This document shows positions 2,432-34,922 of a stretch of 39,289 nt of DNA, in pieces (position 1 is the stretch's first letter; each line of letters opens with the position of its first letter). The notes beneath the pieces are model-generated. The model was not told the origin of the DNA. It searched no databases and worked only from the letters and a program-made list of their open reading frames with translations. Origin of the DNA: a virus. Made by a program: the position numbers and the translations under genes. The stretch lies in the IMG/VR virus record IMGVR_UViG_3300037067_022543. One strand, given 5' to 3'.

Positions 2432-3388
2432 CTAATTTTTGACAGTATTTTTAAAATCATTATCATAATCTCTTATCTTTTTTAGAACAACGCTTTCAGC
2501 TTCGTTATATATTGATTGAATATCTTCATCATAAAAATTAAAAATTCTATCTTCAAAACTTGTTGAATCTATCCTATTATAAAGTCTTCCTTTAAAGTTG
2601 GGAATATCTTTACCATAAATATGCCAAGAATCAGCTTGCCAGTTAATTCTGCCCATTTCTATTTGCCTTCCCATTTTTTCTTTAAGCTTATCAAGAATTA
2701 GAATTTTATTAAATTGAGTAAGACCAAAAATATTCATAAAGAAGGCACCCCAGGAATCATTTGATCTAATTCTTATATTGCAATTAAGCCACAATATTTT
2801 GTCATCATCTTCTAAAAGTCTATACCAAAGTGATTGCAAGCATGGAGGGTCATAAACATTCATGTCAAGCATTGGCATCCAAGTGATCATTTGGGCTTGG
2901 CGAGTAAATGGCTGTTTACAAAGTTTATCTACAACTAATTCTATTTGATTAATGTTGTAGTCTCCGGCTTCAATTGATTCGGGTTTATTTTGTGAATAAG
3001 TTCTCATTTCTTTCCACGAACCCCAATTGGCAAGTCTTTTGTGATAGGTATATTCCCATCTTGTATCTTCTTTAACATTAGCGTCTTTTACCCAGTGATC
3101 TTTATACCCCAAAAGTTCCATAACATATTCCCTCAAGTCTTCTATTCCGCCTGGAAAAGCCTTATGGATCATGGGATCTTTTAGTGGATTAAGCACAGTT
3201 ATATTAGAAGTGCTATCAATACTAGGTTCATCACCTGGTTTATCATATTGGGTTGGCATTCTAATACCTTCTTCATACAATTTAACAAGGGCTGCTTCAT
3301 ATGCTTCTGCTATAGTTTCTTTTTCTGTGTACAATACGGGCATATTCTTCATAATATATTCCTTATTTTTAACCGTTATACCATCCAT
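2432..3388 (-). CDS. thymidylate synthase-family enzyme (ThyA / dUMP or dCMP hydroxymethylase superfamily), divergent and N-terminally extended
   Basis: RQAQMITWMP...DPPCLQSLWY (ThyA R-x-WNP...PPC catalytic Cys) and IRSNDSWGAFFMNIFG (cf. QRSCDxFLGxPFNIASY). ORF track start at 3391 is TTG; ATG at 3386-3388 used. Overlaps upstream gene by 20 nt. Confidence 0.75.
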   Translation of the reverse strand: MDGITVKNKEYIMKNMPVLYTEKETIAEAYEAALVKLYEEGIRMPTQYDKPGDEPSIDSTSNITVLNPLKDPMIHKAFPGGIEDLREYVMELLGYKDHWVKDANVKEDTRWEYTYHKRLANWGSWKEMRTYSQNKPESIEAGDYNINQIELVVDKLCKQPFTRQAQMITWMPMLDMNVYDPPCLQSLWYRLLEDDDKILWLNCNIRIRSNDSWGAFFMNIFGLTQFNKILILDKLKEKMGRQIEMGRINWQADSWHIYGKDIPNFKGRLYNRIDSTSFEDRIFNFYDEDIQSIYNEAESVVLKKIRDYDNDFKNTVKN

Positions 3389-3701
3389 CAATCATTATAT
3401 CAACTTCAATATCTTTTCCTAATTCTGGAATAGCATTTATCAATTCTTTTTTTACGCTTTCTTTGAATTGCCCCAAAGTTTCATTTTCATTCATTTCTGA
3501 AATTGATTTGCCAAGGTATTCCATACCATAATCTGAATTTGAATAGAAACTAAAACCATTTTCTTCTAAATCTGTTTTGCAATTAAATTCTTTATTTAAA
3601 CTAATCGTTTTATTTTTAACATCTTTATTATATGAATTAATACCAACAATGCAAAAACTTGTGGAGCTTGAATTACTTATAAAACCTTCTCTAATTTTCA
3701 T
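3369..3701 (-). CDS. member 1 of MKIREGFVSNSSSSSF-family (110 aa)
   Basis: N-term MKIREGFISNSSSTSFCIVGI; AAAGGA RBS; C-terminal part homologous to member 3 (YLGxS, ExLGxEFKExVKK, W..G end). Confidence 0.8.
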   Translation of the reverse strand: MKIREGFISNSSSTSFCIVGINSYNKDVKNKTISLNKEFNCKTDLEENGFSFYSNSDYGMEYLGKSISEMNENETLGQFKESVKKELINAIPELGKDIEVDIMIDGWYNG

Positions 3702-3738: not shown

Positions 3739-4113
3739 CTATTCTGACAACAGTTCTTTGAATTCTTTTAAGCTAATATCAGTTCCATCGTAATCATATC
3801 CATCATCTCTATTAAAACAAAAAGCTGTGGAATTTTGTGGTATTGTAAAATTTGATTTAAATTCTAAACCATCATAAATTTCCATAAAGGACTCATAAAT
3901 AGAAAAAATATTCCCTTTATTATTTTTATTGATAAAATCAGCAATTTTTTGATTTATTTGAACAACGGTTTCTCCTTCACCACAGTTAAAATATCCAGAA
4001 GTTAAATATATCTTTTTATCACCAATCTTTTCAGGAATCTCTGACAACTTTTTGCCTATAATTACGAAACTTGATGAACTTGAGTTTGAAACGAAACCTT
4101 CTCTAATTTTCAT
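3739..4113 (-). CDS. member 2 of MKIREGFVSNSSSSSF-family (124 aa)
   Basis: N-term MKIREGFVSNSSSSSFVIIGK; AAAGGAG RBS. Confidence 0.8.
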   Translation of the reverse strand: MKIREGFVSNSSSSSFVIIGKKLSEIPEKIGDKKIYLTSGYFNCGEGETVVQINQKIADFINKNNKGNIFSIYESFMEIYDGLEFKSNFTIPQNSTAFCFNRDDGYDYDGTDISLKEFKELLSE

Positions 4114-4130: not shown

Positions 4131-4475
4131 TTAACCATCACGCCATGCTTCTTCATAAGTACCTAGTTCGACACTCTCCCCTAAAATTTGTTCTATTTGT
4201 TTTTTTACATCCTCTTTAAATTCTTTACCTGTTTGATTATCCTTAACATCGCTCCATGAACGTCCCAAATAATATGTGTCTCCATATGGAACATGAAATG
4301 AAAGATTGAGTTTTTGCTTTGAAATTAATTCTTCGACTAGTTCATAAATACCACAATCTTCATCATAGTAGTTATTTTTTTTTAACTTTTCTATAATGTC
4401 ATCATCCAATATTGCCCCAAAAATCAAAAATGACGACGAACTCGAATTGGAAACGAAACCTTCTCTAATTTTCAT
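4131..4475 (-). CDS. member 3 of MKIREGFVSNSSSSSF-family (114 aa)
   Basis: N-term MKIREGFVSNSSSSSFLIFGA; AGGAG RBS. Confidence 0.8.
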   Translation of the reverse strand: MKIREGFVSNSSSSSFLIFGAILDDDIIEKLKKNNYYDEDCGIYELVEELISKQKLNLSFHVPYGDTYYLGRSWSDVKDNQTGKEFKEDVKKQIEQILGESVELGTYEEAWRDG

Positions 4476-4619: not shown

Positions 4620-5798
4620 TTACATTAATATCGGATTAGAAGAAGAGAAAGCTTTTGCCATTGATTTATCATCAAGATTGCATGAAAATCTATTTACTTC
4701 TTCTTTAAAAGACTTTTCATCTGTAATTCTATTCATAACAGACCATCCAATGTTGGGTTTAACAGAATCATTGGTAGTTTCCATACCAATAAACCCAGAA
4801 ATAAAACTCATAGGATAAATTTCTTCATAATATTTCCAAATAAAAGGAACAGATGACAAACCATTAGGAAACTTATCAGTTGTTAGAAGACTTTTACTAT
4901 TTGCACCAACTTTTTCTGACCTAATAAATCCACTTGAACTACCTAAATAACTTTCTCCAACTCTATTGAAATTACCGTTAATATAAGGGAAAAAACTGCA
5001 AATATGACCGCTAATATATGGTCCGCCACTCATGCCACGAAATTTGAAAAACGACTTCCAAAATTCAAGATCAACCTGGCCTTGTGAAGCTTTAATAAAT
5101 TGGTATAATACTGGAGCAAGATCGGTAATCCACCAATCAATATTATAGTCTTCAAATTTGTTAAATTTTACTAAAATATCTGCCCAATCTTCAGAAGATC
5201 CTTCAAGAGTTATTTCTGGAATTCCGCACATAGTACAGACTCCAAAATCAAAATAGCTTTTTACAACATCCATCATAGCAATTTCAAAAGCAACCTTTGA
5301 AGTAGCATCTGTAGTTGAAAAATTACCAATTATATTATTGTAATTTGTCTCTCCAATAAAGTTTTTAATTTGAGATGTAAAATCAGGAAAAACATTAGCC
5401 CAATCGTTGTCTTCTCCTTTTATGAAATTGTCCCTTATAACAAGTAATGATTTCTTTTCATCAAAGTTTACAAATTTTTTACGAAGACTTTCTGAATTTT
5501 CACTAACATGAATAGCAAGTTGCTGAATTATTGCCAACCAAATAATGTCTGGAGACAAAACTAAACGTTTATGCTCCTCAAATGCTTTCATGGCAGAAAA
5601 AACAAAGGGATTATATGGGGATGGAACAATATTTTTTTGGGGATCGCAAACAGCTTCAATTAGTTTTCTAACTTCAATTCTACCATTATTATAATCTTTA
5701 TTATTGTTAATAACTAAAGCAACAGCTTCCTGCATTTTTACTCTGTCTTTACAAGGAGATGAAACTATTTCACAATCATCGACTTTAAATGTATTCAT
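4620..5798 (-). CDS. hypothetical protein (392 aa)
   Basis: long ORF, ATG start; no motif I can name with confidence. Confidence 0.65.
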   Translation of the reverse strand: MNTFKVDDCEIVSSPCKDRVKMQEAVALVINNNKDYNNGRIEVRKLIEAVCDPQKNIVPSPYNPFVFSAMKAFEEHKRLVLSPDIIWLAIIQQLAIHVSENSESLRKKFVNFDEKKSLLVIRDNFIKGEDNDWANVFPDFTSQIKNFIGETNYNNIIGNFSTTDATSKVAFEIAMMDVVKSYFDFGVCTMCGIPEITLEGSSEDWADILVKFNKFEDYNIDWWITDLAPVLYQFIKASQGQVDLEFWKSFFKFRGMSGGPYISGHICSFFPYINGNFNRVGESYLGSSSGFIRSEKVGANSKSLLTTDKFPNGLSSVPFIWKYYEEIYPMSFISGFIGMETTNDSVKPNIGWSVMNRITDEKSFKEEVNRFSCNLDDKSMAKAFSSSNPILM

Positions 5799-5801
5799 AT
5801 A

Positions 5802-6314
5802 TCATCCTTTTTGCAATATAAACTTTTGCTTGCTATATCGAATTTTAGACCAACCAGTTTCTTTCAATTTATTATACAACAATTTCTGTAACTTTAAAAT
5901 ATCTTCTTCGTTTTTAAAATAACTATCTTTAGCAGGATATAATTCAACCATCAAATAACATCCATTTTCTGCCACTCTATTTATTTCTCTACCCAAAAAA
6001 TTTCTTTCATATTTATCAAGAAACATAAATATATAATTGCACAAAATAAGACTGACAGACTTACTTTCTAAAGGAATAATATCTCTGCCTAAAACTGTTT
6101 TTAACCCAAAATCTCCTGCCATATCTAACGGGAAAATTTTACTAAAACCAATGGAATTTAGATAAATAGTATTTCTACCATTTCCGCATCCACAATCAAC
6201 TACAGGCTTTGATTTTATGGCATTAAAAAGACCTATGTTTTTTGCAAGATAAGGGCATGGGCTTTTTCTTCCACATCGAATGCACCATCTATTATTTAAA
6301 TATTTTCTGCTCAT
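5802..6314 (-). CDS. small class-I SAM-dependent methyltransferase with N-terminal Zn-ribbon
   Basis: motif I VVDCGCGNGRNTIYL; CIRCG...CPY at N-term. Confidence 0.7.
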   Translation of the reverse strand: MSRKYLNNRWCIRCGRKSPCPYLAKNIGLFNAIKSKPVVDCGCGNGRNTIYLNSIGFSKIFPLDMAGDFGLKTVLGRDIIPLESKSVSLILCNYIFMFLDKYERNFLGREINRVAENGCYLMVELYPAKDSYFKNEEDILKLQKLLYNKLKETGWSKIRYSKQKFILQKG

Positions 6315-8287: not shown

Positions 8288-8776
8288 TTATTTCTGGCAT
8301 TCTACAATAAATAACTTATCCTTAAAAAGTTTTGGAAGTCTGTTGATTATAGGATAATTTTTATTATATTTTTCTGTAATTGTTTTAGAATCTGTAGAAA
8401 TAATTTTAAAACCATTCTTCTCTAAAATTGGTACGATTTCTTCTAAATTAGTACTACCGATTATATTTCCTGTCTTGTGTTTAGTGCCAATTTTTCTCCA
8501 TTGATATTTTTTATCATTTTCTTCTTTTAGCAAAAAAATACCCCCGGGGCATAAAATCCTATATATTTCTTGTAAATTTCTATCGTAATCTTCTTTTTTG
8601 CAATACATTAAAACATGTTGAACAAGAACTAATTCTGCAGAACCATCTCCATAAGGAATTTTTGAATTCCATCCGTCCCAAGGCTTTACTCCAGAAAAAA
8701 GTTTCCATCTAGGATCTAGATTTTCAAATTCGTTCAATATATTATTCTCGCTACCAAGATTTATTTTTAAAAGCAT
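8288..8776 (-). CDS. methyltransferase-fold protein (degenerate motif I)
   Basis: ELVLVQHVLMY...RILCPGGIFLL resembles post-I/II region of class-I MTases. Confidence 0.45.
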   Translation of the reverse strand: MLLKINLGSENNILNEFENLDPRWKLFSGVKPWDGWNSKIPYGDGSAELVLVQHVLMYCKKEDYDRNLQEIYRILCPGGIFLLKEENDKKYQWRKIGTKHKTGNIIGSTNLEEIVPILEKNGFKIISTDSKTITEKYNKNYPIINRLPKLFKDKLFIVECQK

Positions 8777-8786
8777 AATCTATTCC

Positions 8787-9161
8787 TCATTCAAATATTT
8801 CTATGCCCTTAATCTCGCTAATTTTACCATTATACAAAAGCTGTTCTTGCACTTCTCCTTCTGAAGAAATATTTCCGACTAGAATAATCTTGCCTTGATT
8901 AATTGCTTTTTTCATCCTGCTATAATTTTTTTTCAAATATTCATCTTCTTTTAAGATTTTATCTATTTCTTCATTTTGTTTTAAACCATAATTACACTTA
9001 AAATAAAAATTTAGTTCATCTATTGTTTTTATATATTCTCTGGCATAACTGTCTAAATCTATTTCTAAAGAAAGTGTTACTTTTGTTTCTTTCTTGTTAT
9101 TAATTATTGCAAAAAAACTAGAACTGCTAGAGTTACTCACAAATCCGTTTCTAATTTTCAT
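8787..9161 (-). CDS. member 4 of MKIREGFVSNSSSSSF-family (124 aa)
   Basis: N-term MKIRNGFVSNSSSSSFFAIIN; AAAGGAA RBS. Confidence 0.8.
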   Translation of the reverse strand: MKIRNGFVSNSSSSSFFAIINNKKETKVTLSLEIDLDSYAREYIKTIDELNFYFKCNYGLKQNEEIDKILKEDEYLKKNYSRMKKAINQGKIILVGNISSEGEVQEQLLYNGKISEIKGIEIFE

Positions 9162-9513
9162 TTTTTAACTTTCCTTTTTTGTCATTGTATTTTAATTTTT
9201 TTACGGTTTCATTAGTTTCCAATCTAATGTCATACTTTTTCTTAAAATTATTAACTCTTTTTTCATCTAAACAGCAACACTTTTTGAACTTCTTATTGCT
9301 TCCACAAGGGCAATAGTCGTTACCCCTAATTCTTGGTTTAAAGTTGGCAGATGTATCTTCTTTAAATCCATTTTCATTCATGTTTTCTGTTGCCTTCTGC
9401 TCAATTTCATCCCCTGTTCCTTGCGATTGTTCGCTGACATTTTGGAGATTAAGTTCTTTTTCAGACTTTGAATCTTCTTTATTGCTACTGAATAATGTTT
9501 TCCATGTTTTCAT
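9151..9513 (-). CDS. SEC-C motif-containing protein
   Basis: CPCGSNKKFKKCC near C-terminus (SecA-C-like metal-binding motif). Confidence 0.55.
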   Translation of the reverse strand: MKTWKTLFSSNKEDSKSEKELNLQNVSEQSQGTGDEIEQKATENMNENGFKEDTSANFKPRIRGNDYCPCGSNKKFKKCCCLDEKRVNNFKKKYDIRLETNETVKKLKYNDKKGKLKNEN

Positions 9514-9884
9514 TTTTTTACCTCTTTTTTATAATCACTTTCCCATTTTTTACTGAATATTTCTTCCTGAATATCTGATATTTTTATGCCCCAAAACTTT
9601 TCCATATAATCTCCTATTTTTTCTGCCAAAATTCTTGCTGTTAAATGTTCGCCTAAAAAATGAGGTTTGCCTTCTTTATAATAAAAAATTGTTATTGTAA
9701 TAGTTCTTCCATAAGATTCACTTTGAAGTATTCTTTGTATATATACTGGTTCAACATGCAAAAAATCATTAAATTGCTTTTCAACTTGGCTTGCAGTACC
9801 AGTAAAACATTTACATGTTAATTGGCAAGCACTATTTTCTTCACAACTTGCGTAATTTGTTAAATTTAGATTAGATTCTTCCAT
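9510..9884 (-). CDS. hypothetical protein
   Basis: 124-aa ORF, ATG, stop/start overlap. Confidence 0.55.
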   Translation of the reverse strand: MEESNLNLTNYASCEENSACQLTCKCFTGTASQVEKQFNDFLHVEPVYIQRILQSESYGRTITITIFYYKEGKPHFLGEHLTARILAEKIGDYMEKFWGIKISDIQEEIFSKKWESDYKKEVKK

Positions 9885-9896
9885 AATTTTACTTTC

Positions 9897-10265
9897 TTAC
9901 AATTTCTGTCCTCTACACTCTATTGCTTCCCATTTAAAACTTTTTGATTCTCCGCCATCTCTCAAAATGTAATCGTAAACATTACCTATTAAAGTGCCGT
10001 CTTCATCACCGAAAGACATATAATTATCACCAACCGATATGTTATACTTATTATATGTATTTTTTAAATTTTTAGCAGACTTTATTAAATTAGCATGTGT
10101 ATAACTAGCATCTTGTTTATACCAGTCATATCTATCTAAAAACTTTTCTATCAAATCCTTGTTTTCCTTAACAAAATCAACAATTGTCAATTTTTTATTG
10201 GTTTTGTTTGTAATAATAAAACTAGTTGAGCTAGAATTAGAAACAAAGTTTTCTCTAATTTTCAT
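9897..10265 (-). CDS. member 5 of MKIREGFVSNSSSSSF-family (122 aa)
   Basis: N-term MKIRENFVSNSSSTSFIITNK. Confidence 0.75.
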   Translation of the reverse strand: MKIRENFVSNSSSTSFIITNKTNKKLTIVDFVKENKDLIEKFLDRYDWYKQDASYTHANLIKSAKNLKNTYNKYNISVGDNYMSFGDEDGTLIGNVYDYILRDGGESKSFKWEAIECRGQKL

Positions 10266-10286: not shown

Positions 10287-10499
10287 TTAATCTAAACCCC
10301 AATCAGGATGCAAATCTTTTAATGCTTTGTCATAAGCATCGTCAGAACCTATGAACTCATCTTGTGTATCCCAATCATTACCTTCCAATGCATTTATCAC
10401 TCCTTTGTAAAGACGATATCTGACTTGATCATCTTTAATCTCATCTTGAAACAAATCAATAATTTCTTGCATTACTTGACCACCAGATGCCCATCCCAT
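10287..10499 (-). CDS. small acidic protein immediately downstream of radical-SAM gene
   Basis: 70 aa, Asp/Glu-rich; position analogous to a partner of the rSAM enzyme. Confidence 0.5.
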   Translation of the reverse strand: MGWASGGQVMQEIIDLFQDEIKDDQVRYRLYKGVINALEGNDWDTQDEFIGSDDAYDKALKDLHPDWGLD

Positions 10500-10519
10500 A
10501 TGTTTTCTCCTTATAATTT

Positions 10520-11629
10520 TTATACATCAAACGCAGGACATTTTCTACATCCAGAACATTTGTCTTTACTATTCAAGAGATTATTTCTCCATTGAACAAC
10601 TTTATCAGAAAACCACAAGTCTTTGAAAAAATCAAAACCATCTTTGGTCAAATCAATCCCATCTTGCCAATCTCCATAAAGACCGCAACTTCCTTCTGTA
10701 AAAGAGCATGGGTAGAATTTTCCTTCAACATTAATATATGAACTAAACAATCCACTTTCACAAGGCTCACTTCTAGTTAAAAATTCATTATAATATTTAT
10801 GCCCTTTAACAGAATTCAAAAACTTTGGAGCAGAACAGCTATCCATACCAAAACTAATATTATGTTCCAAGCAAAAATTAACTAAATATTTAAATTTATA
10901 TTCACTTAATGGAGTATATTTTTCTCCACGACCTTTTTTCTTTAAAGACAAAAGCACTATAGCATTCAACCCTTTTAAACGACTATCTGTAAGAATATCA
11001 TTAAGCGTTTCCTTACAGTCTTCAAAAGTTTGTTCTGATATCATGAAATGCATGTTTATTTGCTTCATGCCTAGATCGGTTAATCTTTTGATAGAATCAT
11101 AACAAACATTCTTATCTGCGTAACGAGACACTGCAACAGCACCAGCTATTTCTGAAAGCTTTTTAGCAGTATCATCAGAAATATTAGCAACAGTAATATT
11201 TGGAACAATTCCCTTACTTCTTGCATATTTCATCATATCAAATATTTCTGGATTAGATTGGCATTCGCTATCAGCCCCCAAAGCTATTTGTGTCAAAAAC
11301 AAAGGATATCTGTCTATAACTTTCTTAAACGTTTCCAAGCTCATATTTTTACCATTAGGAGTATTTGATTTGTAACAAAAAGAGCACGGTCTTTTAACTC
11401 CATTTTTATCAGGAATGCCATTACAAATAGTAGTAACTTCAATATCAAGTATTTCTGGAGCTGGGGCAAAATCAGGATCATCTTTTTCTGTTTTTCCACA
11501 TCTCTCAAAACGGCCACTTATCTTATTGAAGTTATAATTATAGTTTTCTGATCTAACCTTTTTCATAAAAGGATAATCATAAACAGTAAATTTAGATCCA
11601 TCAATAAAATTATATGTCTGTGTTTTCAT
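10520..11629 (-). CDS. radical SAM enzyme with C-terminal SPASM/twitch-like Cys cluster
   Basis: TTICNG-x9-RPCSFCY (Cx12Cx2C variant of CxxxCxxC), LGADSE (GGE-like), C-terminal C..C..CSGCRKCP. ORF-track start 11650 is TTG; first ATG at 11629. Confidence 0.6.
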   Translation of the reverse strand: MKTQTYNFIDGSKFTVYDYPFMKKVRSENYNYNFNKISGRFERCGKTEKDDPDFAPAPEILDIEVTTICNGIPDKNGVKRPCSFCYKSNTPNGKNMSLETFKKVIDRYPLFLTQIALGADSECQSNPEIFDMMKYARSKGIVPNITVANISDDTAKKLSEIAGAVAVSRYADKNVCYDSIKRLTDLGMKQINMHFMISEQTFEDCKETLNDILTDSRLKGLNAIVLLSLKKKGRGEKYTPLSEYKFKYLVNFCLEHNISFGMDSCSAPKFLNSVKGHKYYNEFLTRSEPCESGLFSSYINVEGKFYPCSFTEGSCGLYGDWQDGIDLTKDGFDFFKDLWFSDKVVQWRNNLLNSKDKCSGCRKCPAFDV

Positions 11630-11653
11630 AATTGTATATAAAATAATCAATAC

Positions 11654-12412
11654 TTAGTGATGACTAACGGTTATATGCGGTAGACTTTTAAATATGTCTC
11701 CATGTTCCATTGTACAGTAAAATTCTCCGTCATTATCGCTATACTCAAAAATACATATATGCCTACCTTTATTATCATCCATAAACTTTTTAGCGTCAAT
11801 ATTTGAAAGTTTCTTTCTTAAAGAATATTGTTTTTTCCAAATTTTGTTTTGTTCGTTAAAATATTTTGTTTTGAAATCTTTATATTCTTTATTTGTGTTA
11901 CGCCATTTGTTATACTTTTCATACCATTCATCTTGTTCTTTTTTAGAAAGTTCAGAATGGTTTTTGGGGCGTCCCATTCCATATTTATTAATAATTTCTT
12001 CTTCTTTTTTCCAATGACTTTCTGATAATTCATCATATTTAACAAAAAGTTTTGCTAATTCTTCAAGAATTTCCTCATCATTACCATAATATTTATCTTT
12101 ACCAACCCATCCATATTCCAAACATCTACTAAACATATTGTTGCTATGCCTTGTGTAATAATACCTATTTGAAAGTAATTCTGCTATTTTTTCAAGAGTT
12201 GCTTCTTTGTTTTTAATATTTCTACTAATATCATCAAAAACATTTTTAACAACATCTGATGTGGCAGCTCTATTGTCATAATAATTAATATTTTTATCAA
12301 GTTCCATGTGCATCATTTTACTTAAATCTTCTATTGATTCTGGATTTTTAGGGAAGGCAACAATAAAAGAAGAACTACTAGAATTACTTACAAATCCATT
12401 TCTAATTTTCAT
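11654..12412 (-). CDS. member 6 of MKIREGFVSNSSSSSF-family (252 aa, extra C-terminal domain)
   Basis: N-term MKIRNGFVSNSSSSSFIVAFP; AAAGGAG RBS. Confidence 0.8.
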   Translation of the reverse strand: MKIRNGFVSNSSSSSFIVAFPKNPESIEDLSKMMHMELDKNINYYDNRAATSDVVKNVFDDISRNIKNKEATLEKIAELLSNRYYYTRHSNNMFSRCLEYGWVGKDKYYGNDEEILEELAKLFVKYDELSESHWKKEEEIINKYGMGRPKNHSELSKKEQDEWYEKYNKWRNTNKEYKDFKTKYFNEQNKIWKKQYSLRKKLSNIDAKKFMDDNKGRHICIFEYSDNDGEFYCTMEHGDIFKSLPHITVSHH

Positions 12413-13260
12413 TTTTTCAACTCCTTTAAAAACTTGCGAAAACTACTTTTTGTTGGTTTATTTGTTTTTCCTTCTCCGGTAGGCATATGAGTTGGAAGAT
12501 CAGGAATACCTATTATCGCATCTGGATATAACTTTTTCATTTGTTCACGAAACGACTTTCTATCTAAAGATTCATTGGATTCTGGAGTTGAATCTGCATC
12601 TATTTTATTAATTTCTTCTTCCAAAACATGACATTTATAGGACTTATTAAAAAAAACTCCATTGGCATGAACAAACTTAATTCTTTGTTTTAATTCCTTT
12701 AATTTATCTTCTCCTTTTGCTTCTGATAACCTTACGATTCTAGCTATTTTATAATCATTATCTTTTCTTTCAAATTGGACAATGTAATTAGTATCAAATG
12801 AAAAAAACATAATAATTTCTTTCAATAAATCTCCCATACCTTCATTGAAATCATTGTGCATACTAGTGAAATAAGAAAACTCAATTCCATCTTTAGAAAA
12901 CTTTGTTTTGATTCCACTGTGCTTTAAAACAAACTTAACTAATTTCCCATTTGTTGAACATTTATCAAGATCATCAAGTTCTTTTTTACAACGTAAAACA
13001 TAATCATTATTAATCTTTTGCATAAACTTAAAAGTGCTATTTTTACATTCTTTAAAATAAGTCTTACTATATTTTTTATTATCTTCTATAGCTTTTTTAA
13101 TTCTATCTTTTATTTTACGATTAATAATTCTCTTGTTAAAATAATCGAACCAATAATTAGAAACCATTAGGTTCACAAAATCATTGAACTTTAAATCATT
13201 AACTCTAAAAAAATAACTACTGGAACTAGAATTGCTTACGAAACCTTCTCTAATTTTCAT
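12409..13260 (-). CDS. member 7 of MKIREGFVSNSSSSSF-family (about 283 aa)
   Basis: ORF track starts 12 codons upstream (13296); family consensus places start at internal ATG 13258-13260 (MKIREGFVSNSSSSSYFFRVN). Confidence 0.75.
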   Translation of the reverse strand: MKIREGFVSNSSSSSYFFRVNDLKFNDFVNLMVSNYWFDYFNKRIINRKIKDRIKKAIEDNKKYSKTYFKECKNSTFKFMQKINNDYVLRCKKELDDLDKCSTNGKLVKFVLKHSGIKTKFSKDGIEFSYFTSMHNDFNEGMGDLLKEIIMFFSFDTNYIVQFERKDNDYKIARIVRLSEAKGEDKLKELKQRIKFVHANGVFFNKSYKCHVLEEEINKIDADSTPESNESLDRKSFREQMKKLYPDAIIGIPDLPTHMPTGEGKTNKPTKSSFRKFLKELKK

Positions 13261-13270
13261 ATATTCGCTT

Positions 13271-13525
13271 TCAATTAAAAATGTATTTAATAACATCTGA
13301 TTTAGACAAATGAGATCTTAAACGACCTTCTCTGTTCTTGATAAGTTTATAACGGCCATTTCTTTTTTTAAAAACAAGATCTGCTCTAGCAAAGTGATTT
13401 TCACTTGAATCAGCTTTATACCAACGGCTGGCGCCATCTTTTCCAAAATTAAGAGAATATTCGTTAACATTATTAAGATCATCACAAATTATAACAACAG
13501 TTTTAGTTTTCATTTTATTTTTCAT
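13271..13525 (-). CDS. hypothetical protein
   Basis: 84-aa ORF. Confidence 0.5.
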   Translation of the reverse strand: MKNKMKTKTVVIICDDLNNVNEYSLNFGKDGASRWYKADSSENHFARADLVFKKRNGRYKLIKNREGRLRSHLSKSDVIKYIFN

Positions 13526-17602: not shown

Positions 17603-17695
17603 TGGAAGAGAGGAAGGGATTCGAACCCTTGGGGCCCCATTACGAGGCCCAATTGTTTAGCAAACAATCCCCATAAACCGCTCGGGCACCTCTCC
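17603..17695 (-). tRNA. tRNA-Ser(GCU), class II
   Basis: acceptor GGAGAGG/CCTCTCT, anticodon stem ATTGT/ACAAT loop TTGCTAA, long variable arm, T-loop TTCGAAT, encoded CCA. Confidence 0.85.
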
Positions 17696-17743
17696 ATTAT
17701 TATGCTTTGTCAAAATCGTACTAACTTTTTTATTTTATTAAAC

Positions 17744-17837
17744 TGGCAGAAGGATAGAGATTTGAACTCTAGTGACTCGTTGAAAAGTCCTCGTGATTTC
17801 CGATCACGTGCCATAAACCAGACTCGGCCATCCTTCT
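17744..17837 (-). tRNA. tRNA-Ser(GGA), class II
   Basis: acceptor AGAAGGA/TCCTTCT, D-stem GCC/GGC, anticodon stem CGTGA/TCACG loop TCGGAAA (unusual C33), long variable arm, CCA. Confidence 0.75.
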
Positions 17838-17844
17838 ATAAACC

Positions 17845-17936
17845 TGGCAGGAAGAGAGAGATTTGAACTCCCGGGACCCCTTTCGGAGTCCTATGCTTTT
17901 CAAGAGCATCGCCATAAGCCACTCGGCCATCTTCCC
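17845..17936 (-). tRNA. tRNA-Ser(UGA), class II
   Basis: acceptor GGGAAGA/TCTTCCT, anticodon stem ATGCT/AGCAT loop CTTGAAA, long variable arm, CCA. Confidence 0.8.
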
Positions 17937-17946
17937 TCAAAATTAC

Positions 17947-18035
17947 TGGAGGAAACGAAGGGACTTGAACCCCCAACTCCGTTTATAGGAGCACTAGTTT
18001 TCGAGACTAGCAGGCTACCATTACCTCACGCTTCC
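17947..18035 (-). tRNA. tRNA-Ser(CGA), class II
   Basis: acceptor GGAAGCG/CGTTTCC, D-stem AGG/CCT, anticodon stem CTAGT/ACTAG loop CTCGAAA, 19-nt variable arm, CCA. Confidence 0.8.
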
Positions 18036-18044
18036 ACTTAAAAT

Positions 18045-18130
18045 TGGTGTCGGTGATAGGAGTTGAACCTACACGAGATTTCCTCTGCGGATTTTGAATC
18101 CGCCGCGGCTTCCAATTACGCCACACCGAC
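18045..18130 (-). tRNA. tRNA-Leu(CAA), class II
   Basis: acceptor GTCGGTG/CACCGAC, anticodon stem GCGGA/TCCGC loop TTCAAAA, long variable arm, discriminator A, CCA. Confidence 0.8.
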
Positions 18131-18133
18131 ATT

Positions 18134-18361
18134 CTAATCTTTTCCTAAAATTTTTCTTTGAACCACATCTCCATAATCTTGATAATTTGTTTTTGGAGGA
18201 TCTTTTTGTTGAGAAGAAAAATTTAATAACGGAGCATCTTCGTCCTTATCTTGTTCTTCTTCCGCTTCTTGAGATATTTCCAAATTAGTTTTACTATTAT
18301 CTACTGTCACTGGTTTCCCAACTACTCCTTTACTTCTGTCTAATCTTTTTATCGGCTTCAT
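18134..18361 (-). CDS. small hypothetical protein embedded in tRNA island
   Basis: 75 aa; TTG start with AAGGA RBS 6 nt upstream. Confidence 0.5.
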   Translation of the reverse strand: MKPIKRLDRSKGVVGKPVTVDNSKTNLEISQEAEEEQDKDEDAPLLNFSSQQKDPPKTNYQDYGDVVQRKILGKD

Positions 18362-18374
18362 ATTTTATCCTTAA

Positions 18375-18464
18375 ATGGTGCTGATGGTGGGATTTGAACC
18401 CACACGGGACATTAAGCCAGTAGTACCTCAAACTACTCCCTGCTGCCAATTCGGGTACATCAGC
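18375..18464 (-). tRNA. tRNA-Leu(GAG), class II
   Basis: acceptor GCTGATG/CATCAGC, anticodon stem GTAGT/ACTAC loop TTGAGGT, 16-nt variable arm, discriminator A, CCA. Confidence 0.8.
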
Positions 18465-18475
18465 ATTTTATTAAA

Positions 18476-19384
18476 TCATACAATGTTTTCTTTTTTCCAT
18501 TGTATTCCCATTAATCTACACCTTTTTCTAACAGCATTATCACTTATATTAAACATTTTTCCTATTGAAGTCATGGGTTTAGATTCAACTAACTTTACCA
18601 ATTCTTCTTTTGAGATATGAAATTTTCTAGACCTCTCTATAGCCATTTGTTTAGATTCGTTTATTTTACTTCTCAAATTAGGTATTAATATGTGTTCTTC
18701 TCTGCATATTCTTTTTAATATTTTATAATTTACACCAATTTCAGAACATATTCTTTTAAACGAAACATTTTTTAATCTTTCTATTAAAATCTCCCTGTTC
18801 ATCCCAAAATCAATAAGATTTACTTTTTTAGTTTCCCAACAAGCCCTGCACCTTCCAATTTTGTTATTGTTAATCTTTTTTCCACAATTAATACAAATTG
18901 ATTTATTAATACTGTTTTTACCTATTAAATTTTTTCTACCGCAATAATTTTTTGTTTGGCTATGGCAGTTAGGACATAAAAATCTTAAATTTTCTATTCT
19001 ACTGTCTCTTTTATCTCCATTAATATGATCTAATTGCAAAACAAGTTTGTCACTATTCCATATATTTATTAGTCCACATTTTTGGCATTTGTATTCTATT
19101 AATTTGTTTTTTATAACTTTTTCTCTTAAATTAGATAACGATCTATCTACGCCCTTAATAAAATACTCATTTGTTGGAATTGCATTAACAGCTATGCTAC
19201 CACGATTCCACCCTTGACCTAGAAAATGGGATGTGTCAAAACCATTTTTAATAGCAATTCTTTTTATAGTATTCATGTTGCCACCAGCTGGTCTTAAACC
19301 TATAGTTTCACAAACTTTCCTCCACGATTTGTTATTTAGTATTGCATTTTTAACATCTTCTACCGTGTAATTTTTACTTGCCAT
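18476..19384 (-). CDS. HNH homing endonuclease inserted between tRNA genes
   Basis: LQLDHINGDKRDSRIENLRFLCPNCHS HNH core plus C-terminal DNA-binding region; flanked by tRNAs on both sides. Confidence 0.75.
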   Translation of the reverse strand: MASKNYTVEDVKNAILNNKSWRKVCETIGLRPAGGNMNTIKRIAIKNGFDTSHFLGQGWNRGSIAVNAIPTNEYFIKGVDRSLSNLREKVIKNKLIEYKCQKCGLINIWNSDKLVLQLDHINGDKRDSRIENLRFLCPNCHSQTKNYCGRKNLIGKNSINKSICINCGKKINNNKIGRCRACWETKKVNLIDFGMNREILIERLKNVSFKRICSEIGVNYKILKRICREEHILIPNLRSKINESKQMAIERSRKFHISKEELVKLVESKPMTSIGKMFNISDNAVRKRCRLMGIQWKKENIV

Positions 19385-19469
19385 ATTTCATACTCCTTTA
19401 TACTTTTAATATATCATTCGTATAAATATGGCACACTTCCTTTATTTTAATTATTCTCGTATGCCAAAA

Positions 19470-19554
19470 TGGTGGGACTGATAGGATTTGAACCTACACA
19501 GATTTACATCTATTACGGTCTAAACGCAAGAGTCTGCCGTTCCGCCACAAACCC
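19470..19554 (-). tRNA. tRNA-Leu(UAG)-like, irregular (possible diverged duplicate/pseudo-tRNA)
   Basis: anticodon stem TTGCG/CGTAA loop TTTAGAC, long variable arm, T-arm GTAGG TTCAAAT CCTAT, disc A, CCA; but acceptor GGGTTTG/CAGTCCC has a T:T mismatch and the D-stem pairs poorly. Confidence 0.5.
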
Positions 19555-19587
19555 GTTATATAAACTATTTTATACTATCTAAAAAAT

Positions 19588-19671
19588 TGGTGCGGGTAGA
19601 GGGATTTGAACCCCCACTCCTTACGGAATCAGATCCTAAGTCTGACGCGGCTTCCATTACGCCATACCCGC
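19588..19671 (-). tRNA. tRNA-Leu(UAG), class II
   Basis: acceptor GCGGGTA/TACCCGC, anticodon stem TCAGA/TCTGA loop CTTAGGA, 13-nt variable arm, disc A, CCA. Confidence 0.8.
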
Positions 19672-19682
19672 ATTACTAAAAT

Positions 19683-19767
19683 TGGTGGGCAAGACGGGAC
19701 TTGAACCCGTACGGTTTTACCCTGCAGATTTTAAGTCTGCCGCGGCTTCCAATTACGCCACTCGCCC
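19683..19767 (-). tRNA. tRNA-Leu(UAA), class II
   Basis: acceptor GGGCGAG/CTTGCCC, anticodon stem GCAGA/TCTGC loop CTTAAAA, long variable arm, disc A, CCA. Confidence 0.8.
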
Positions 19768-22820: not shown

Positions 22821-23188
22821 TGGTGGACCCGGAGGGATTTGAACCCTCGTCTTGATAAATTTCAAAAATGGCATCTACATGTTTATATGATTTTACTATT
22901 TTAGGCAAACCATCAAGCCCACCAGAATCCTTTCTTCTGGTTAGTCAGCAAACGTCTTTCCGTTTCGCATTTGTCAGGGGTCTTATCTTCACCCATTGAA
23001 CTCTAGTGATCGTCACTACTCTAGGCTACCAGAGATATCTTGCCTATTTCGCGGACAGCTGGTTAAGCAGCCATCAAATAAGAAGCTTTGTCAGCTCTTA
23101 ATGTTTTTAGTGGATTCTTTACGGTGCCAACCACTATCACCTACATGCATCCATAATCTCTTCTTATCAATCGAAACCGGTCGGGCCC
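22821..23188 (-). ncRNA. ssrA: tmRNA (transfer-messenger RNA), tag reading frame ADKASYLMAA-stop
   Basis: 5' GGGCCCGACCGGTTTCGA...; 3' GGGTTCAAATCCCTCCGGGTCCACCA; acceptor GGGCCCG/CGGGTCC with G3:U70; PK1-like GGTTGGC..CGTAAA; frame GCT GAC AAA GCT TCT TAT TTG ATG GCT GCT TAA (cf. E. coli ANDENYALAA). Confidence 0.85.
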
Positions 23189-23947: not shown

Positions 23948-24718
23948 TTATTTCTCCTTGTTTCCAAATAGATTAGGGGGCATATTGTTAGCTATTCTAT
24001 TTTCTGATATTTTATGATATTCTTTTGATATTTCAGAACCAACATAATTTCTATTATTATTTAAGCAAGAAATTGCAGTAGTTCCTCCACCCATAAAAGG
24101 ATCGTAAACTAAGTCTCCTTCATATGAAAGTAATTTAATACACATATCTGGCAAATCTGTATGAAAATTTGCTTTTGTAATTTCTTGACTTTGAGTTCTT
24201 AATTTCCATATTCCGCTACATCCCATCATAAATTCGTCTTTAGAAATCTTGCTATTGCCTTCTTTAATCTTTTTCCATACATCTTTATATCCTACCATAA
24301 CAATCTCATAAGGATTATAAATATATGGAGATGATGGCTTCAACCAAGAACCCCATGCAGTATACTTAACTCTATGAGAATCAACCCAAACTGGAGAACC
24401 AAATATATTTATTCCAACTTTATTAAACAAATTATAAAACTCAGCATAAGGAGAAATTCTTTTTTTATTATATTCTATGCCCATTTCCAATAATATATTA
24501 AGGCATATTCTACCATCAGATTTTAGAACTCTTTTTATTTCTTTCAACCATTTTTCACACCAAGACAAATAATCTGACCAATCTTTATTATCATTATAAA
24601 TATCATATTTAATGCCACAATTATATGGAGGGCTTGTTACTACTAAATCTACAAAGTCATCAGGCATCTTTGACAAAGTAAGTAAACAGTCTTCGTTATA
24701 AATTTTATTAATTTCCAT
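23948..24718 (-). CDS. DNA methyltransferase (amino-MTase, beta-class: N4-C or N6-A)
   Basis: motif IV SPPY near N-term, motif I DPFMGGGTT near C-term. Confidence 0.8.
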   Translation of the reverse strand: MEINKIYNEDCLLTLSKMPDDFVDLVVTSPPYNCGIKYDIYNDNKDWSDYLSWCEKWLKEIKRVLKSDGRICLNILLEMGIEYNKKRISPYAEFYNLFNKVGINIFGSPVWVDSHRVKYTAWGSWLKPSSPYIYNPYEIVMVGYKDVWKKIKEGNSKISKDEFMMGCSGIWKLRTQSQEITKANFHTDLPDMCIKLLSYEGDLVYDPFMGGGTTAISCLNNNRNYVGSEISKEYHKISENRIANNMPPNLFGNKEK

Positions 24719-25226: not shown

Positions 25227-26927
25227 CTATTTTTCTATAACTTCAACACCAACAACATCTAATTGCATCCCCCATTTTTCATCATAACTTTGTGGGAATT
25301 TAAAGTAAACATTTGCTCTTTTGCCAAATTCTTTAAGGGAGCCAATCTCATCATTAAATGTTTTAAACTTAAAATTAATCCCATCAACCTTCAATATAGA
25401 TAATATCCAGTTCGGGTTTTCTTTTCTATCAACTAAAGAAACCGCTACTTCTGAAAGCTTAAAAATTGGCTCTGGATTGTTAATATCACAATATGGATAT
25501 AATAAGTTAACAATTTTATAAGTATCTTCACTAATTGATGATGGCTTCAAAACAGCGTCATAAAAAACTTCTTTGTTACAATTTTTATTTTCTTCTACAA
25601 GCACTTTTTGACAAGCATCATTAAATATTTTTCTTGATTTGTCAAGATATTTTTTCTTTAACGTAACACCTGCTGCATAATCATGCCCGCCATATTTATC
25701 AAACATCTCTGAACATAAATCCAATATTTTAATTAAGCTAATGCCTTTTATAGATCTTCCACTTCCTTTTAAAATTCCTTTTTCTCTACCTATTACCACT
25801 GTTGGTTTATGAAACTTTTCGGCTATTTCAGAAGCAACAACTCCTACAACTCCTATGTTCCATTTAGGATTAACCAGTAAAATACCATATTCCATTTCTT
25901 TTTCATTAAACATACCTATTGCTTCTTCTAATATATTTCCTTGTATTTCTTGTCTATTTTTATTTGTAATCTCAAGAACTTGTATAATATCATCAATCTC
26001 ATCTTTATTTTTAGACACAAGTAAATCAAAAGCTTCTTGAGGAGATCCTAATCTGCCGACAGCATTTAATCTTGGAGCTAATCTAAAACCAACCTGTTCT
26101 TGAGTAATTGTTTTATTATTTAATTTACATAACTCTATTAAAGTTGACAATCCTTTAGAAGACAATTTATTAAAAAATTTCAGCCCTTGTTTAACAATAA
26201 TTCTGTTATCTTTAATAATAGGAGAAACATCTGCAATTGTTCCTATTGCAGCCAAAGATAATAATTCCTGAAGATTATCCTGTGTTATATTGCCATAAGT
26301 CGAGAACATCTCTAATGCTATTAAATAAACTAATCCACAAGTACACATTTCTTGAGAATCATACATTCTCCAATTAACTACTGAATTGGCTGATCTAGAA
26401 AAGTTTTCATCATTAAAAATATGATGATCGATCACGGCTATTTTTTCTATTCCAAAAGATTTCAATTTCTTTATTTCTTTTTCAGATGAAGATCCGCAAT
26501 CAAGTATTAATAATAGATCCGGAGTTTTGTTTTCAAGAGTAAATGCTATAAAAGATGCTAATGTTTGGGCATTTAATCCGTATCCATGCTCAAATCTAGA
26601 TGGAAGAAAAACATTACATTCTATGTTTAATATGTCACAAATCCTTCTTATCATATAAGAAGAAATTATACCATCAGTGTCATAATCACCTATGCAAGCA
26701 ACACTCTTTTTATCCGTACATATACCCATTAGTAGGTTAGAAATGTCTTTTATATTTTTAATTAATGATAGGTTTTTAAGATGCAAATAAGTGTCTTGGT
26801 GCGGATTTAGAAAGCCATCAACATCATCTATTTGCCTTTGAGACAATAACCTAGATAATAGTGGATTCATGCCGCCAATTTTCATTGATTTTTCTAATTC
26901 ATAATTATGCTGTCTTACGCAATACAT
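25227..26927 (-). CDS. recJ: RecJ-like DHH-family single-strand DNA exonuclease
   Basis: VACIGDYDTDGIISS (DxDGxxS), AVIDHHIF (DHH), GGHDYAAG (DHHA1 GGH); GGAGGAG RBS. Confidence 0.85.
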   Translation of the reverse strand: MYCVRQHNYELEKSMKIGGMNPLLSRLLSQRQIDDVDGFLNPHQDTYLHLKNLSLIKNIKDISNLLMGICTDKKSVACIGDYDTDGIISSYMIRRICDILNIECNVFLPSRFEHGYGLNAQTLASFIAFTLENKTPDLLLILDCGSSSEKEIKKLKSFGIEKIAVIDHHIFNDENFSRSANSVVNWRMYDSQEMCTCGLVYLIALEMFSTYGNITQDNLQELLSLAAIGTIADVSPIIKDNRIIVKQGLKFFNKLSSKGLSTLIELCKLNNKTITQEQVGFRLAPRLNAVGRLGSPQEAFDLLVSKNKDEIDDIIQVLEITNKNRQEIQGNILEEAIGMFNEKEMEYGILLVNPKWNIGVVGVVASEIAEKFHKPTVVIGREKGILKGSGRSIKGISLIKILDLCSEMFDKYGGHDYAAGVTLKKKYLDKSRKIFNDACQKVLVEENKNCNKEVFYDAVLKPSSISEDTYKIVNLLYPYCDINNPEPIFKLSEVAVSLVDRKENPNWILSILKVDGINFKFKTFNDEIGSLKEFGKRANVYFKFPQSYDEKWGMQLDVVGVEVIEK

Positions 26928-27763: not shown

Positions 27764-27996
27764 ATAATATCCAATGTATCAGTGGTTCTGTTAGCAACAA
27801 AACCAATTTTAGAATTATACTTCACGGCTGAAAACCTATAAGCGTTTTTTATAATTTCCTGATATTCTGGAGAAAAGTCTGTTATTTTTTTAGTTCTATC
27901 TAAAAAAACTGCATTAACATCATCCCAAAGCTCAATTTTGCCAGGATCATTATTACTAGGATCAGCAGGATCATCAGGAGAAATTGGATTTGCCAT
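27760..27996 (-). CDS. hypothetical protein
   Basis: 78-aa ORF. Confidence 0.45.
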
Positions 27997-28906
27997 ATTT
28001 TTTTAGTACTCCTATAATTACTTCCCTATCTTCTTTATCTATAATTACAGGAACATCATAAAATACCCTTGCTATAAAATCAGAATTATTAAAACCCTTG
28101 TTGCTTATATGATAAAATGCCCCATTCCCCTTACGTGAATCTAATTTAATTTCAACGCTTTCTTTATCTCCAAGTATGTGATGGGTAACGACATCTTCTC
28201 TTAAAATATTAATCATTGGAATATTTAAAAGACATATTATAGAACCATCATTTTGAACTAAATGATTATCCTCTTCTACTGGATAATCTATTTGAATATA
28301 TAAATCTCCTTCAGTATTATCAAAAGACAATATGTTGCCTTTTTTTTCTATTTTTATAAAAGATCTTTTTTTAATTCTTGGTGGTATATCAACAGATAAA
28401 GACTCTTTACTGAAAATAGTTTTAATTCCATATTTTAAATTATTGTCTTTTTTATAAATTTCTCTTTTATAAGAAATAGTCTTCTTGCATCCACAATATG
28501 CATCTTTTAAAGATATATTTAATCCTATTTTTATATCTTTTTGGATAGGATCTCTTGTCCCAAAACCCCCTCTACCAAAGTTAATAGTAAAACCACCAAA
28601 GTTTATCCCATTTCCATCAGAAGACGGTTTTCCAAAATCTGCCCAAAAAGATTCCGAAAAAGACTCATTAAAATCCATAAAATTTCTATCAAAAGGAGAT
28701 GGGTTATCATATCTTTTTCTTTTAGATTCATCTGATAAAACTTCGTAAGCTTCATTAATCTCCTTGAATTTATTTTCGTTTTCTTTTGTATTATTAACAT
28801 CAGGATGGTATTTAAAAGCTTTTTTTCTAAAAGCCTTCTTTATTTCTTCTTGAGTTGCTTTTTTATCTACATCAAGAATTTTATAATAATTTTTTGTTGT
28901 TTTCAT
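27974..28906 (-). CDS. J-domain (DnaJ-like) co-chaperone
   Basis: [32 protein letters not shown] (HPD), Gly/Phe-rich region [17 protein letters not shown]; no CxxCxGxG zinc finger. Confidence 0.8.
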
Positions 28907-28944
28907 TTTTTATTTTCTTTTCAGAAATAAAACAATCTTATTCT

Positions 28945-31260: not shown

Positions 31261-31268
31261 GATTATTT

Positions 31269-31526
31269 TTATCCACAAAAATCATCTTTATCATCTTGTT
31301 CTTCTTTAAAATTAAGATAATTGACCATCTCTTTTATCTCTTTGTTCTCCATCATCTTTTCATCTTCTGGTATTTCTTGAGAAAAAGCAAATACAGAAAT
31401 AACAAGATTTTTTTCTTCATCTGTCATGTCTGGATATCTGGCAAAAATCATCTGATCATTATGTCTTCTGCCAAACAGCACTCTTCCTCTTTCGTCACAA
31501 ATATGCCACCTAAAACCTTCTTGCAT
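31269..31526 (-). CDS. hypothetical protein
   Basis: 85 aa, AAAGGA RBS. Confidence 0.5.
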   Translation of the reverse strand: MQEGFRWHICDERGRVLFGRRHNDQMIFARYPDMTDEEKNLVISVFAFSQEIPEDEKMMENKEIKEMVNYLNFKEEQDDKDDFCG

Positions 31527-32456: not shown

Positions 32457-33239
32457 TTATGGCTTTTTAAAAAACAAGATTGATGTATGTGTTCTACTAG
32501 TTATCATCTTAACTGGATAGCCAAAAAAAGATGCCCTTCTAGCTTCATTATACCATATATATTCTCCTTGTGGCTTCCATCCAGCATTTTTAGCTTCTTG
32601 GCATAAAAGATCTGTTAAAAAGATATATTCTCCATTTATATACATATCCTCCATAAAAGAAATCATGTATTTTCCATTTTTAATCATATTAAAAGATTTT
32701 TTACAAAAATCAAAAATAAACTTCTTCCAATCATTTATATCTTTAAAATAAATACCGAATTTATCCATTGGTCTTTCTAAACTGCCAATTCCTTTATAAA
32801 TCCTTGTTGATTTTTTCCTAGAATCCATATCAAAATAAGGAGGATCTGCAAAAACCAAATCTACATATTGGTCATCCATATTAAAAAAGCTTTTGTGTAA
32901 AATGGCATTTTTATCATAAGTATTAAATAGGCCGTTTAATTCGTCACAAGATGATTGGTAGGCATCTATATATGATTTATTAATTTCGCAGCCTACAGCC
33001 CTTCTTCCTGCCATCTGTGCTCCCAATATAATCCCTCCAGTTCCTGCAAATGGATCTAAAATCAAATCGCCCTTATGAGAAAATATTTCTATAATGTCTT
33101 TACAAAGAAGTGGGGGTTTACAAGCTTTATTTAAACGCCTAATTTTATGAGCAAAAGAACCCTGCCCATAATTTTTTTTAATAACAGATTTAGACCTAAA
33201 TAACCATTCTGAACCAGTTAAATCATTTAATTTATTCAT
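32457..33239 (-). CDS. N6-adenine DNA methyltransferase
   Basis: motif I LILDPFAGTGGIILGA followed by motif IV LVFADPPY. Confidence 0.8.
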   Translation of the reverse strand: MNKLNDLTGSEWLFRSKSVIKKNYGQGSFAHKIRRLNKACKPPLLCKDIIEIFSHKGDLILDPFAGTGGIILGAQMAGRRAVGCEINKSYIDAYQSSCDELNGLFNTYDKNAILHKSFFNMDDQYVDLVFADPPYFDMDSRKKSTRIYKGIGSLERPMDKFGIYFKDINDWKKFIFDFCKKSFNMIKNGKYMISFMEDMYINGEYIFLTDLLCQEAKNAGWKPQGEYIWYNEARRASFFGYPVKMITSRTHTSILFFKKP

Positions 33240-34911: not shown

Positions 34912-34922
34912 ATTCACCCTTT

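Follow-up and report, generated by a model that had tools for sequence, protein, structure and literature searches.

A phage radical SAM enzyme genomically coupled to one N-terminal tag on many unrelated proteins

What does a phage-encoded radical S-adenosylmethionine (SAM) enzyme act on when its gene lies among genes whose products share their first residues? The question is raised by the IMG/VR virus record IMGVR_UViG_3300037067_022543, a stretch of 39,289 nucleotides referred to here as the window. The enzyme is encoded at 10520..11650 on the minus strand. Seven other open reading frames (ORFs) of the window start MKIR(N/E)(G/N)F(V/I)SNSSS(S/T)S(F/Y). We call this N-terminus the tag, and the tagged proteins its cargos. 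Across distant phages the enzyme and the tag show a tight linkage in both directions, and no other gene is conserved along with them.

A predicted peptide-maturase-like radical SAM enzyme

Read from a TTG start at 11650, the enzyme ORF encodes 376 amino acids (aa). The corresponding database gene call (P0001) has 369 aa, which makes the ATG at 11629 the probable start. The protein consists of an N-terminal all-beta domain, a cluster motif (C76-X12-C89-X2-C92), a partial (beta/alpha)6 triosephosphate isomerase (TIM) barrel core and a C-terminal domain. The motif reads TTIC76-NGIPDKNGVKRP-C89-SF-C92-Y, nine residues longer than CX3CX2C, and seven more cysteines lie in the last 105 residues (272, 297, 315, 322, 365, 368 and 371). 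In alignments of 22 and 73 homologs, C76, C89, C92, C272, C297, C315 and C371 are invariant. The same alignments identify a conserved YNYxFxKxxGxFxRWG...DDP pattern in the N-terminal domain (approximately residues 1-65). The initial annotation had reported the nine inserted residues and a Cys-rich, SPASM-like C-terminus, and both descriptions stand. It had also called the cluster motif atypical, which is true of the window enzyme but not of the family. Between the first two cluster cysteines (C1 and C2), homologs have 3, 6, 7, 8, 11, 12, 13, 15 or 17 residues. The canonical CX3CX2C is present in homologs P0002 and P0104 and at approximately ten further loci. Hence, CX12CX2C is a lineage variant of the canonical motif rather than a new type of cluster.

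Radical SAM and SPASM profiles had been proposed as a check on the enzyme, with a mixed outcome. Pfam Radical_SAM (PF04055) scored the whole protein at 17.5 bits, below the cut-off of 29.5 (E 0.005), and the match begins past the loop. Therefore, radical SAM membership rests on motif and fold. SPASM (PF13186/TIGR04085) scored the whole enzyme at 17.2 bits against a cut-off of 21.5 (E 0.006). Only the isolated C-terminal 113 aa passed, marginally, at 22.1 bits across the full profile (1-67). Many homologs carry a precomputed PF13186 match. An NCBIfam scan returned eight weak SPASM-type matches, the best with an E of 4.9e-5. The enzyme also matches phrog_7293 (E 7e-118), a family of unknown function.

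A complete SPASM signature comprises seven cysteines (CX9-15GX4C ... CX2CX5CX3C ... C) and carries two auxiliary clusters. The arrangement C297-X12-G-X4-C315, a signature of the SPASM/twitch hairpin, is invariant among homologs. The second C-terminal Cys block varies, with C371 its only invariant residue. The window enzyme has C365-X2-C368-X2-C371, many homologs have CX2CX5C and some a single Cys. The four C-terminal cysteines that are invariant across the family (272, 297, 315 and 371) are twitch-like and would fit the single auxiliary cluster of a BtrN-type twitch. Judged from the alignments, only one fully Cys-ligated auxiliary cluster seems assured family-wide; the window enzyme appears to have enough cysteines for two. 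Searches of the PDB by sequence and by profile gave no significant match. The sole sequence-level resemblance, to a BtrN-type twitch, is weak (E 0.3) and involves the C-terminal ...W...FR..L...C..C segment.

The predicted structure has a predicted local distance difference test (pLDDT) score of 94.8. Structure comparison values were highest for SuiB (23.3) and SkfB (21.0), followed by anSME (18.6), CteB (18.2), BlsE (18.2), ChlB (18.1) and PqqE (18.1). Lower values were obtained for viperin (17.4), MoaA (16.3), BtrN (13.8), PFL-AE (13.1) and QueE (11.1). The initial annotation had named QueE, NrdG and viperin as classes that would speak against a maturase; the modelled fold is nearer to SuiB, SkfB, anSME and CteB. 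The N-terminal domain is modelled as five beta strands with no helix. Its 64 aa gave no Pfam match even at E<=10, a PqqD-like element included. Motif and predicted fold together show a peptide-maturase-like radical SAM protein.

The family is abundant. At E<=1e-3, a metagenome protein collection yields 2637 homologs, of which the best 120 all have E<=1.8e-114. Enzymes of approximately 48% identity are present in cultured phages including RB16 (p156), RB43, Miller, KP15 and Vibrio phage D479. The radical SAM gene of several cultured phages is in two pieces or adjoins a homing endonuclease gene (PMC9960720). Phages with such an enzyme gene are Cronobacter phage leB (KX431559 92106-93373), Citrobacter phage IME-CF2, Klebsiella phage Kpn35c1 and Vibrio phage D479 (L182 21076-21804).

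One tag on many proteins and its coupling to the enzyme

All seven tagged ORFs of the window are on the minus strand, as is virtually every gene in this DNA of low G+C content (approximately 29%). Two of them flank the enzyme (11654..12412 and 9897..10265), which agrees with the earlier placement of the enzyme between members of a family with a shared N-terminus. The first encodes 252 aa and has its stop codon 3-24 nt ahead of the enzyme start. Its subfamily, that of the RB16 p111 orthologs, is the most widely conserved among the cargos, with 1783 cluster representatives at E<=1e-3. The subfamily pattern is the tag followed by FPKxPES...YSDNDG..MEHGxIF...H-COOH, and thus includes a conserved C-terminal motif of its own. 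The second flanking ORF encodes 122 aa (MKIRENFVSNSSSTSF) and has full-length homologs in seven other enzyme loci. A 283-aa tagged protein (MKIREGFVSNSSSSSY) is encoded at 12409..13260. The listed ORF begins upstream, at 13296, and reads MLLNTFLIESEY-MKIREGF.... All other tags stand at the very N-terminus, and translation therefore almost certainly begins at the ATG at 13260. The remaining tagged proteins are of 124 aa (8787..9161, starting with the tag), 114 aa (4131..4475, with homologs in eight other enzyme loci), 124 aa (3739..4113) and 110 aa (3369..3701; MKIREGFISNSSSTSF). The cargo at 3739..4113 has no relatives outside its own phage; the search returned itself alone. Across the seven tags, serine is specified by differing synonymous codons (TCT, AGT, TCC, AGC, TCA and TCG). 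Therefore, it is the peptide and not a DNA repeat that is conserved, and selection acts on the protein.

Among 390 non-redundant proteins, the tag consensus is M-K-[I/T/V]-R-x-G-F-V-S-N-S-S-S-S-S-F, followed by two hydrophobic residues. Fourteen of the 16 positions are 88-100% conserved, with only positions 3 and 5 free; four positions were fixed by the search pattern, and a looser pattern gave the same picture. As a synthetic sequence the tag peptide is MKIRNGFVSNSSSSSFIV. A tblastn search with a 36-aa tag consensus gave no matches, probably due to low-complexity masking.

Behind the tag, the proteins differ. After removal of the tag, 391 proteins fell into 124 clusters, and hhalign probabilities were below 7% in all 66 pairs of the 12 largest. 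Hence, the tag is a module and not a family motif. A Pfam scan of 141 cargo representatives found no significant domain and one marginal Zn-ribbon match (E 7e-4). Matches of cargos in PHROGs are mainly via the tag (phrog_7397). Cargo lengths range from 85 aa, which was the lower analysis cut-off, to 390 aa, with quartiles of 119, 135 and 164 aa. The cargos are strongly acidic, with a median isoelectric point (pI) of 4.57; 88% of them lie below 5.5, as do only 33% of the other ORFs at these loci. A quarter of them have at least four cysteines. One Cys-rich subfamily, F(I/T)C-x-(V/I)(C/S)G...SG-x-D...M-x-(E/S)C, recurs in 29 loci.

An AlphaFold2 model of the 252-aa member has a pLDDT of 93. For residues 1-10 the mean is 49, and residues 1-4 are below 50. 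Therefore, the most conserved residues of the protein make no confident intramolecular contacts, which fits a tail acting through another molecule. The first beta strand of the model starts at Ser13 (residues 13-20). Rare variants of the tag (at loci L024, L123, L186/L188 and L013) are uniform within a genome: G6T in 9/9 tags, G6D in 3/3, F7L in 5/5 and K2R in 3/3. The free positions 3 and 5 are likewise uniform within genomes. Such concerted evolution would fit a single genome-encoded reader or gene conversion. The idea that the C1-C2 loop length tracks tag variants was rejected: F7L tags accompany a CX3CX2C enzyme, but eight other loop-3 enzymes have standard tags. Also rejected was a glycyl-radical reading of R4-x-G6-F7. 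Glycyl-radical enzymes are large and have the fingerprint RVxG[FWY]; the tag is out of register with this fingerprint and the cargos are too small.

Genomic coupling was assessed from both sides. The enzyme-seeded set comprised 80 viral loci around homologs of 43-57% identity which, with the window, made 81 loci scanned within 10 kb. The tag-seeded set comprised 78 viral loci found with F[VI]SNSSS[ST]S. The initial annotation had suggested that the two families belong together, and they do co-occur. From the enzyme side, 63 of the 81 loci hold ORFs starting MK[ITV]RxGFVSNSSSSSF, 229 in all. Every one is on the enzyme strand (186 downstream and 43 upstream), and in 34 loci a tagged ORF lies at most 400 bp from the enzyme. 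The window has seven tagged proteins; other loci have up to 13. In the reverse direction, 49 of the 78 tag-seeded loci hold the enzyme within 10 kb. Nine more are RB16-, RB43- and KP15-type contigs with enzyme-seeded loci approximately 20 kb away on the same contig. Clustering of same-strand ORFs from the 81 loci found no other family common to more than nine, and no conserved protease or transporter was found across them. Consistent with the initial annotation, this is not a classical cluster for a ribosomally synthesised and post-translationally modified peptide: the partners are of 85-390 aa, conservation is in residues 1-16, and there is no conserved protease or exporter gene.

The coupling spans phages of 25-51% G+C and contigs from a few kb to 548 kb. 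Among 50,697 cultured-phage records, the enzyme is found in 173, the RB16 p111 type in 175 and the RB16 p106 type in 174, with an identical genus breakdown. Vibrio phage D479 (258 kb) belongs to a different lineage and carries the enzyme together with five tagged ORFs within 20 kb. A search of 185,579 prokaryotic species genomes yielded only 20 enzyme loci, nearly all on contigs of metagenome-assembled genomes (MAGs). Hence, the system is essentially viral.

Proposed modification of the tag and its alternatives

Since the enzyme is maturase-like, the tag is a module and their linkage is tight and bidirectional, recognition and modification of the tag by the enzyme is the most economical explanation. 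On balance we lean towards modification of the shared tag, leaving the chemistry unspecified. The tagged proteins would then be the substrates in a phage-specific system of two parts, a radical SAM enzyme and a variable set of small, acidic, unrelated proteins. Briefly, the exposed tag (residues 1 to 10-12) would be bound by the enzyme, perhaps through the all-beta N-terminal domain, which in the model occupies the place of the leader-binding domain of other maturases. Reductive cleavage of SAM at the C76/C89/C92 cluster would generate a 5'-deoxyadenosyl radical. This would take hydrogen from a residue of the tag, and the auxiliary cluster or clusters would handle the electron. The outcome would be a covalent modification inside the tag, on every tagged protein made by the phage. 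Candidate chemistries, which all fall within the known SPASM repertoire and which we do not rank, include conversion of Ser to formylglycine (as in anSME), a C-C crosslink such as Lys2-Phe7 (compare the Lys-Trp link of SuiB), a three-residue F7-V8-S9 cyclophane and epimerisation.

We put forward a broader version more tentatively. Large lytic phages may run a maturase-like system on whole proteins, in which one enzyme renders a universal tag modified, crosslinked or reactive, with formylglycine aldehydes and a strained macrocycle as examples of the product. It would do so on a fast-evolving repertoire of acidic early proteins, unrelated to one another and numbering in the dozens. The cargos could plausibly be effectors of host takeover or anti-defence, with the modification required for their stability, delivery or activity.

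Several observations weigh against modification of the tag by the enzyme. A PqqD-like leader-binding domain was detected neither in the enzyme nor in any neighbour. Within 10 kb, the partner is missing from 18 of the 81 enzyme loci and from 29 of the 78 tag loci; some of these cases are explained by 20-kb separation or contig ends. A search for an alternative shared N-terminus in 24 loci lacking the tag found none. Tags are nearby in only 7 of the 20 more distant homologs (40-44% identity) on MAG or genome contigs. The co-occurrence among cultured phages comes mostly from one clade, and these records are not independent events. Uniformity of the tag within genomes could come from gene conversion or recent duplication. 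Finally, Ser13-Phe16 fall within the first beta strand of the modelled cargo, and conservation of this part of the tag could be partly structural.

The tag might instead be an address label, read by some other factor for capsid packaging or for host-directed localisation or stability. In that case the substrate of the enzyme would be something else, and the two would only have a hypervariable early-gene region in common. T4 offers a comparable arrangement. Its internal proteins (IPI, IPII, IPIII and Alt) are diverse, fast-evolving small proteins, encoded in hypervariable regions of T4-like phages, that share a short N-terminal capsid-targeting sequence. The large T4-like phages considered here likewise have diverse small proteins with one N-terminus, and in RB16 and KP15 types the tagged genes are 20 kb from the enzyme. 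Furthermore, the p106-type cargo of RB16 and KP15 (L098:13901-14368) matches phrog_132, 'head-tail adaptor', over its full length (E 1e-9), and some GenBank records use the same label. The label may have been assigned automatically, or it may indicate kinship of some cargos with virion proteins. However, the T4 capsid-targeting sequence differs from the tag, which has no conserved protease site: the (L/I)xE site of the T4 type needs a Glu, and no tag position has a conserved one. T4 has no radical SAM gene, whereas the tag is strictly coupled to one. Across the 81 loci, enzyme and tags stay together on the same strand, often abutting, without another shared gene. The nearest structural relatives of the enzyme modify peptides. 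An address label is therefore unlikely in our judgement, although we give it some weight. We consider it quite improbable that the cargos serve as interchangeable adaptors or specificity subunits, with the tag docking into the enzyme to steer its chemistry to host or phage targets. Such an arrangement would explain the same co-occurrence, the extreme conservation of the tag, the diversity of the cargos and the flexible tail. Yet conservation of 14 of 16 positions, including a run of six serines, is beyond the usual need of a docking strand. No target can be proposed, and we know of no precedent among radical SAM enzymes.

The two other explanations concern the cargos and the neighbours. The tagged proteins could form one divergent homologous family, in which the motif belongs to the fold or active site, perhaps as a phosphate-binding Ser-rich loop following strand 1, and the link to the enzyme is metabolic. 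In the modelled member the first beta strand does consist of residues 13-20, many members seem by eye to have a similar C-terminal strand and G-rich tail, and single-linkage clustering at 60% coverage joined 167 ORFs. Set against this are the uniformly low profile-profile probabilities among the 12 largest tag-stripped subfamilies, the range of sizes and the lack of confident contacts for residues 1-10. Some cargos are Cys-rich and Zn-ribbon-like, others helical. We regard a single family as very improbable. Hardly credible is the version in which the maturase works with an acidic PqqD-like partner and two methyltransferases as tailoring enzymes. The initial annotation had pointed to a 70-aa ORF directly following the enzyme (10287..10499, minus strand). 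It does follow the enzyme and is acidic (pI 4.06; 17 D+E against 6 K+R), but it does not qualify as a PqqD-like partner. Pfam gives no match for it, PqqD included, and none of the 80 other enzyme loci has a homolog; a search of 5.8 billion proteins yielded only two relatives. Adjacency is lost in the most closely related phage, whose enzyme is 81% identical: the acidic ORF is 1.1 kb and five ORFs from the enzyme. On another contig, there is no enzyme-sized gene in the 3 kb upstream. The two interleaved methyltransferases (5802..6314 and 8288..8776) do have real folds, passing Pfam Methyltransf_11 at 26.1 and 34.1 bits, respectively, against a cut-off of 21.2. However, neither has a homolog in the 80 other enzyme loci. 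The same is true of a 392-aa DUF4419 protein (4620-5798; E 2.7e-76) encoded among the tagged genes. Judged by this distribution, neither the acidic ORF nor either methyltransferase is part of the enzyme-tag system.

Known systems, neighbouring genes and significance

The SPASM/twitch maturases, including SuiB (for streptide), SkfB, CteB and PqqE, are structurally nearest to the phage enzyme, with sequence identity of 13-17%. The phage enzyme differs in having no PqqD-like domain and, in its place, an all-beta N-terminal domain. Instead of one short precursor, it is presumed to act on folded proteins of 85-390 aa drawn from more than 100 unrelated families. The conserved element is the extreme N-terminus, without a variable core. 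Neither a leader protease nor an exporter is in evidence, and the system is almost confined to phages. The anSME/AtsB enzymes are a second point of comparison. The tag logo lacks their target motif, (C/S)xPxR, no sulfatase is present, and no anSME model is among the eight NCBIfam matches. In addition, anSME has the full SPASM Cys set, compared to four invariant C-terminal cysteines in the phage family. QhpD, which acts with QhpC in maturation of quinohemoprotein amine dehydrogenase, is likewise of the radical SAM/SPASM type and crosslinks a protein subunit, not a peptide natural product. It has one dedicated substrate, in which it forms Cys-to-Asp/Glu thioethers, whereas the phage tag has no conserved Cys.

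To our knowledge, almost all known radical SAM maturases serve bacterial peptide natural-product pathways or act on one of a few dedicated protein substrates. No description of the enzyme-tag system was found in a literature search that covered the tag string SNSSSSSF, or in four family libraries. A radical SAM maturase with clustered putative substrates is of a known kind; its one-tag, many-proteins and phage-specific form is unprecedented.

Other genes of the window lie among or beyond the tagged genes. Between tagged genes is a 120-aa ORF (9151-9513; ...YCPCGSNKKFKKCC...) with what appears by eye to be a SEC-C-like metal-binding motif. It adjoins a Cys-rich ORF (9510-9884), and neither has homologs in other enzyme loci. 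The window has nine transfer RNA (tRNA) genes, four for tRNA-Ser (GCT, GGA, TGA and CGA) and five for tRNA-Leu, and a phage transfer-messenger RNA (tmRNA) with the tag peptide ADKASYLMAA. The tRNA/tmRNA coordinates are 17603-19767 and 22821-23188. A full tRNA-Ser set beside tagged proteins with a six-Ser run may be coincidence. By eye, there are three DNA methyltransferase-like ORFs (SPPY/DPPY; 23948-24718, 32457-33239 and 34102-34917), a RecJ-like DHH protein (25227-26927) and, at 27974-31278, a DnaJ-like ORF adjoining a 777-aa Clp/Hsp100-like ATPase. The load of chaperones and methylases is unusually rich for a single 39-kb phage segment. PADLOC defence models returned nothing meaningful.

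An abundant enzyme family, almost confined to phages, is thus tied to one invariant tag on more than 100 protein families of unknown function. The relationship is open to direct test in E. coli, and cultured E. coli, Klebsiella and Vibrio phages carry the system. If the tag is modified, "hypothetical" genes of RB16, RB43, KP15/KP27, Miller and Vibrio D479 would gain a common biochemical handle. Novel radical chemistry at a Ser-rich motif may emerge, and the compact enzyme-tag pair would be available for protein engineering. Should the more tentative view of a maturase-like system acting on whole proteins prove true, viral post-translational modification would gain a new class, and the enzyme and its tag would form a naturally occurring, portable pair.

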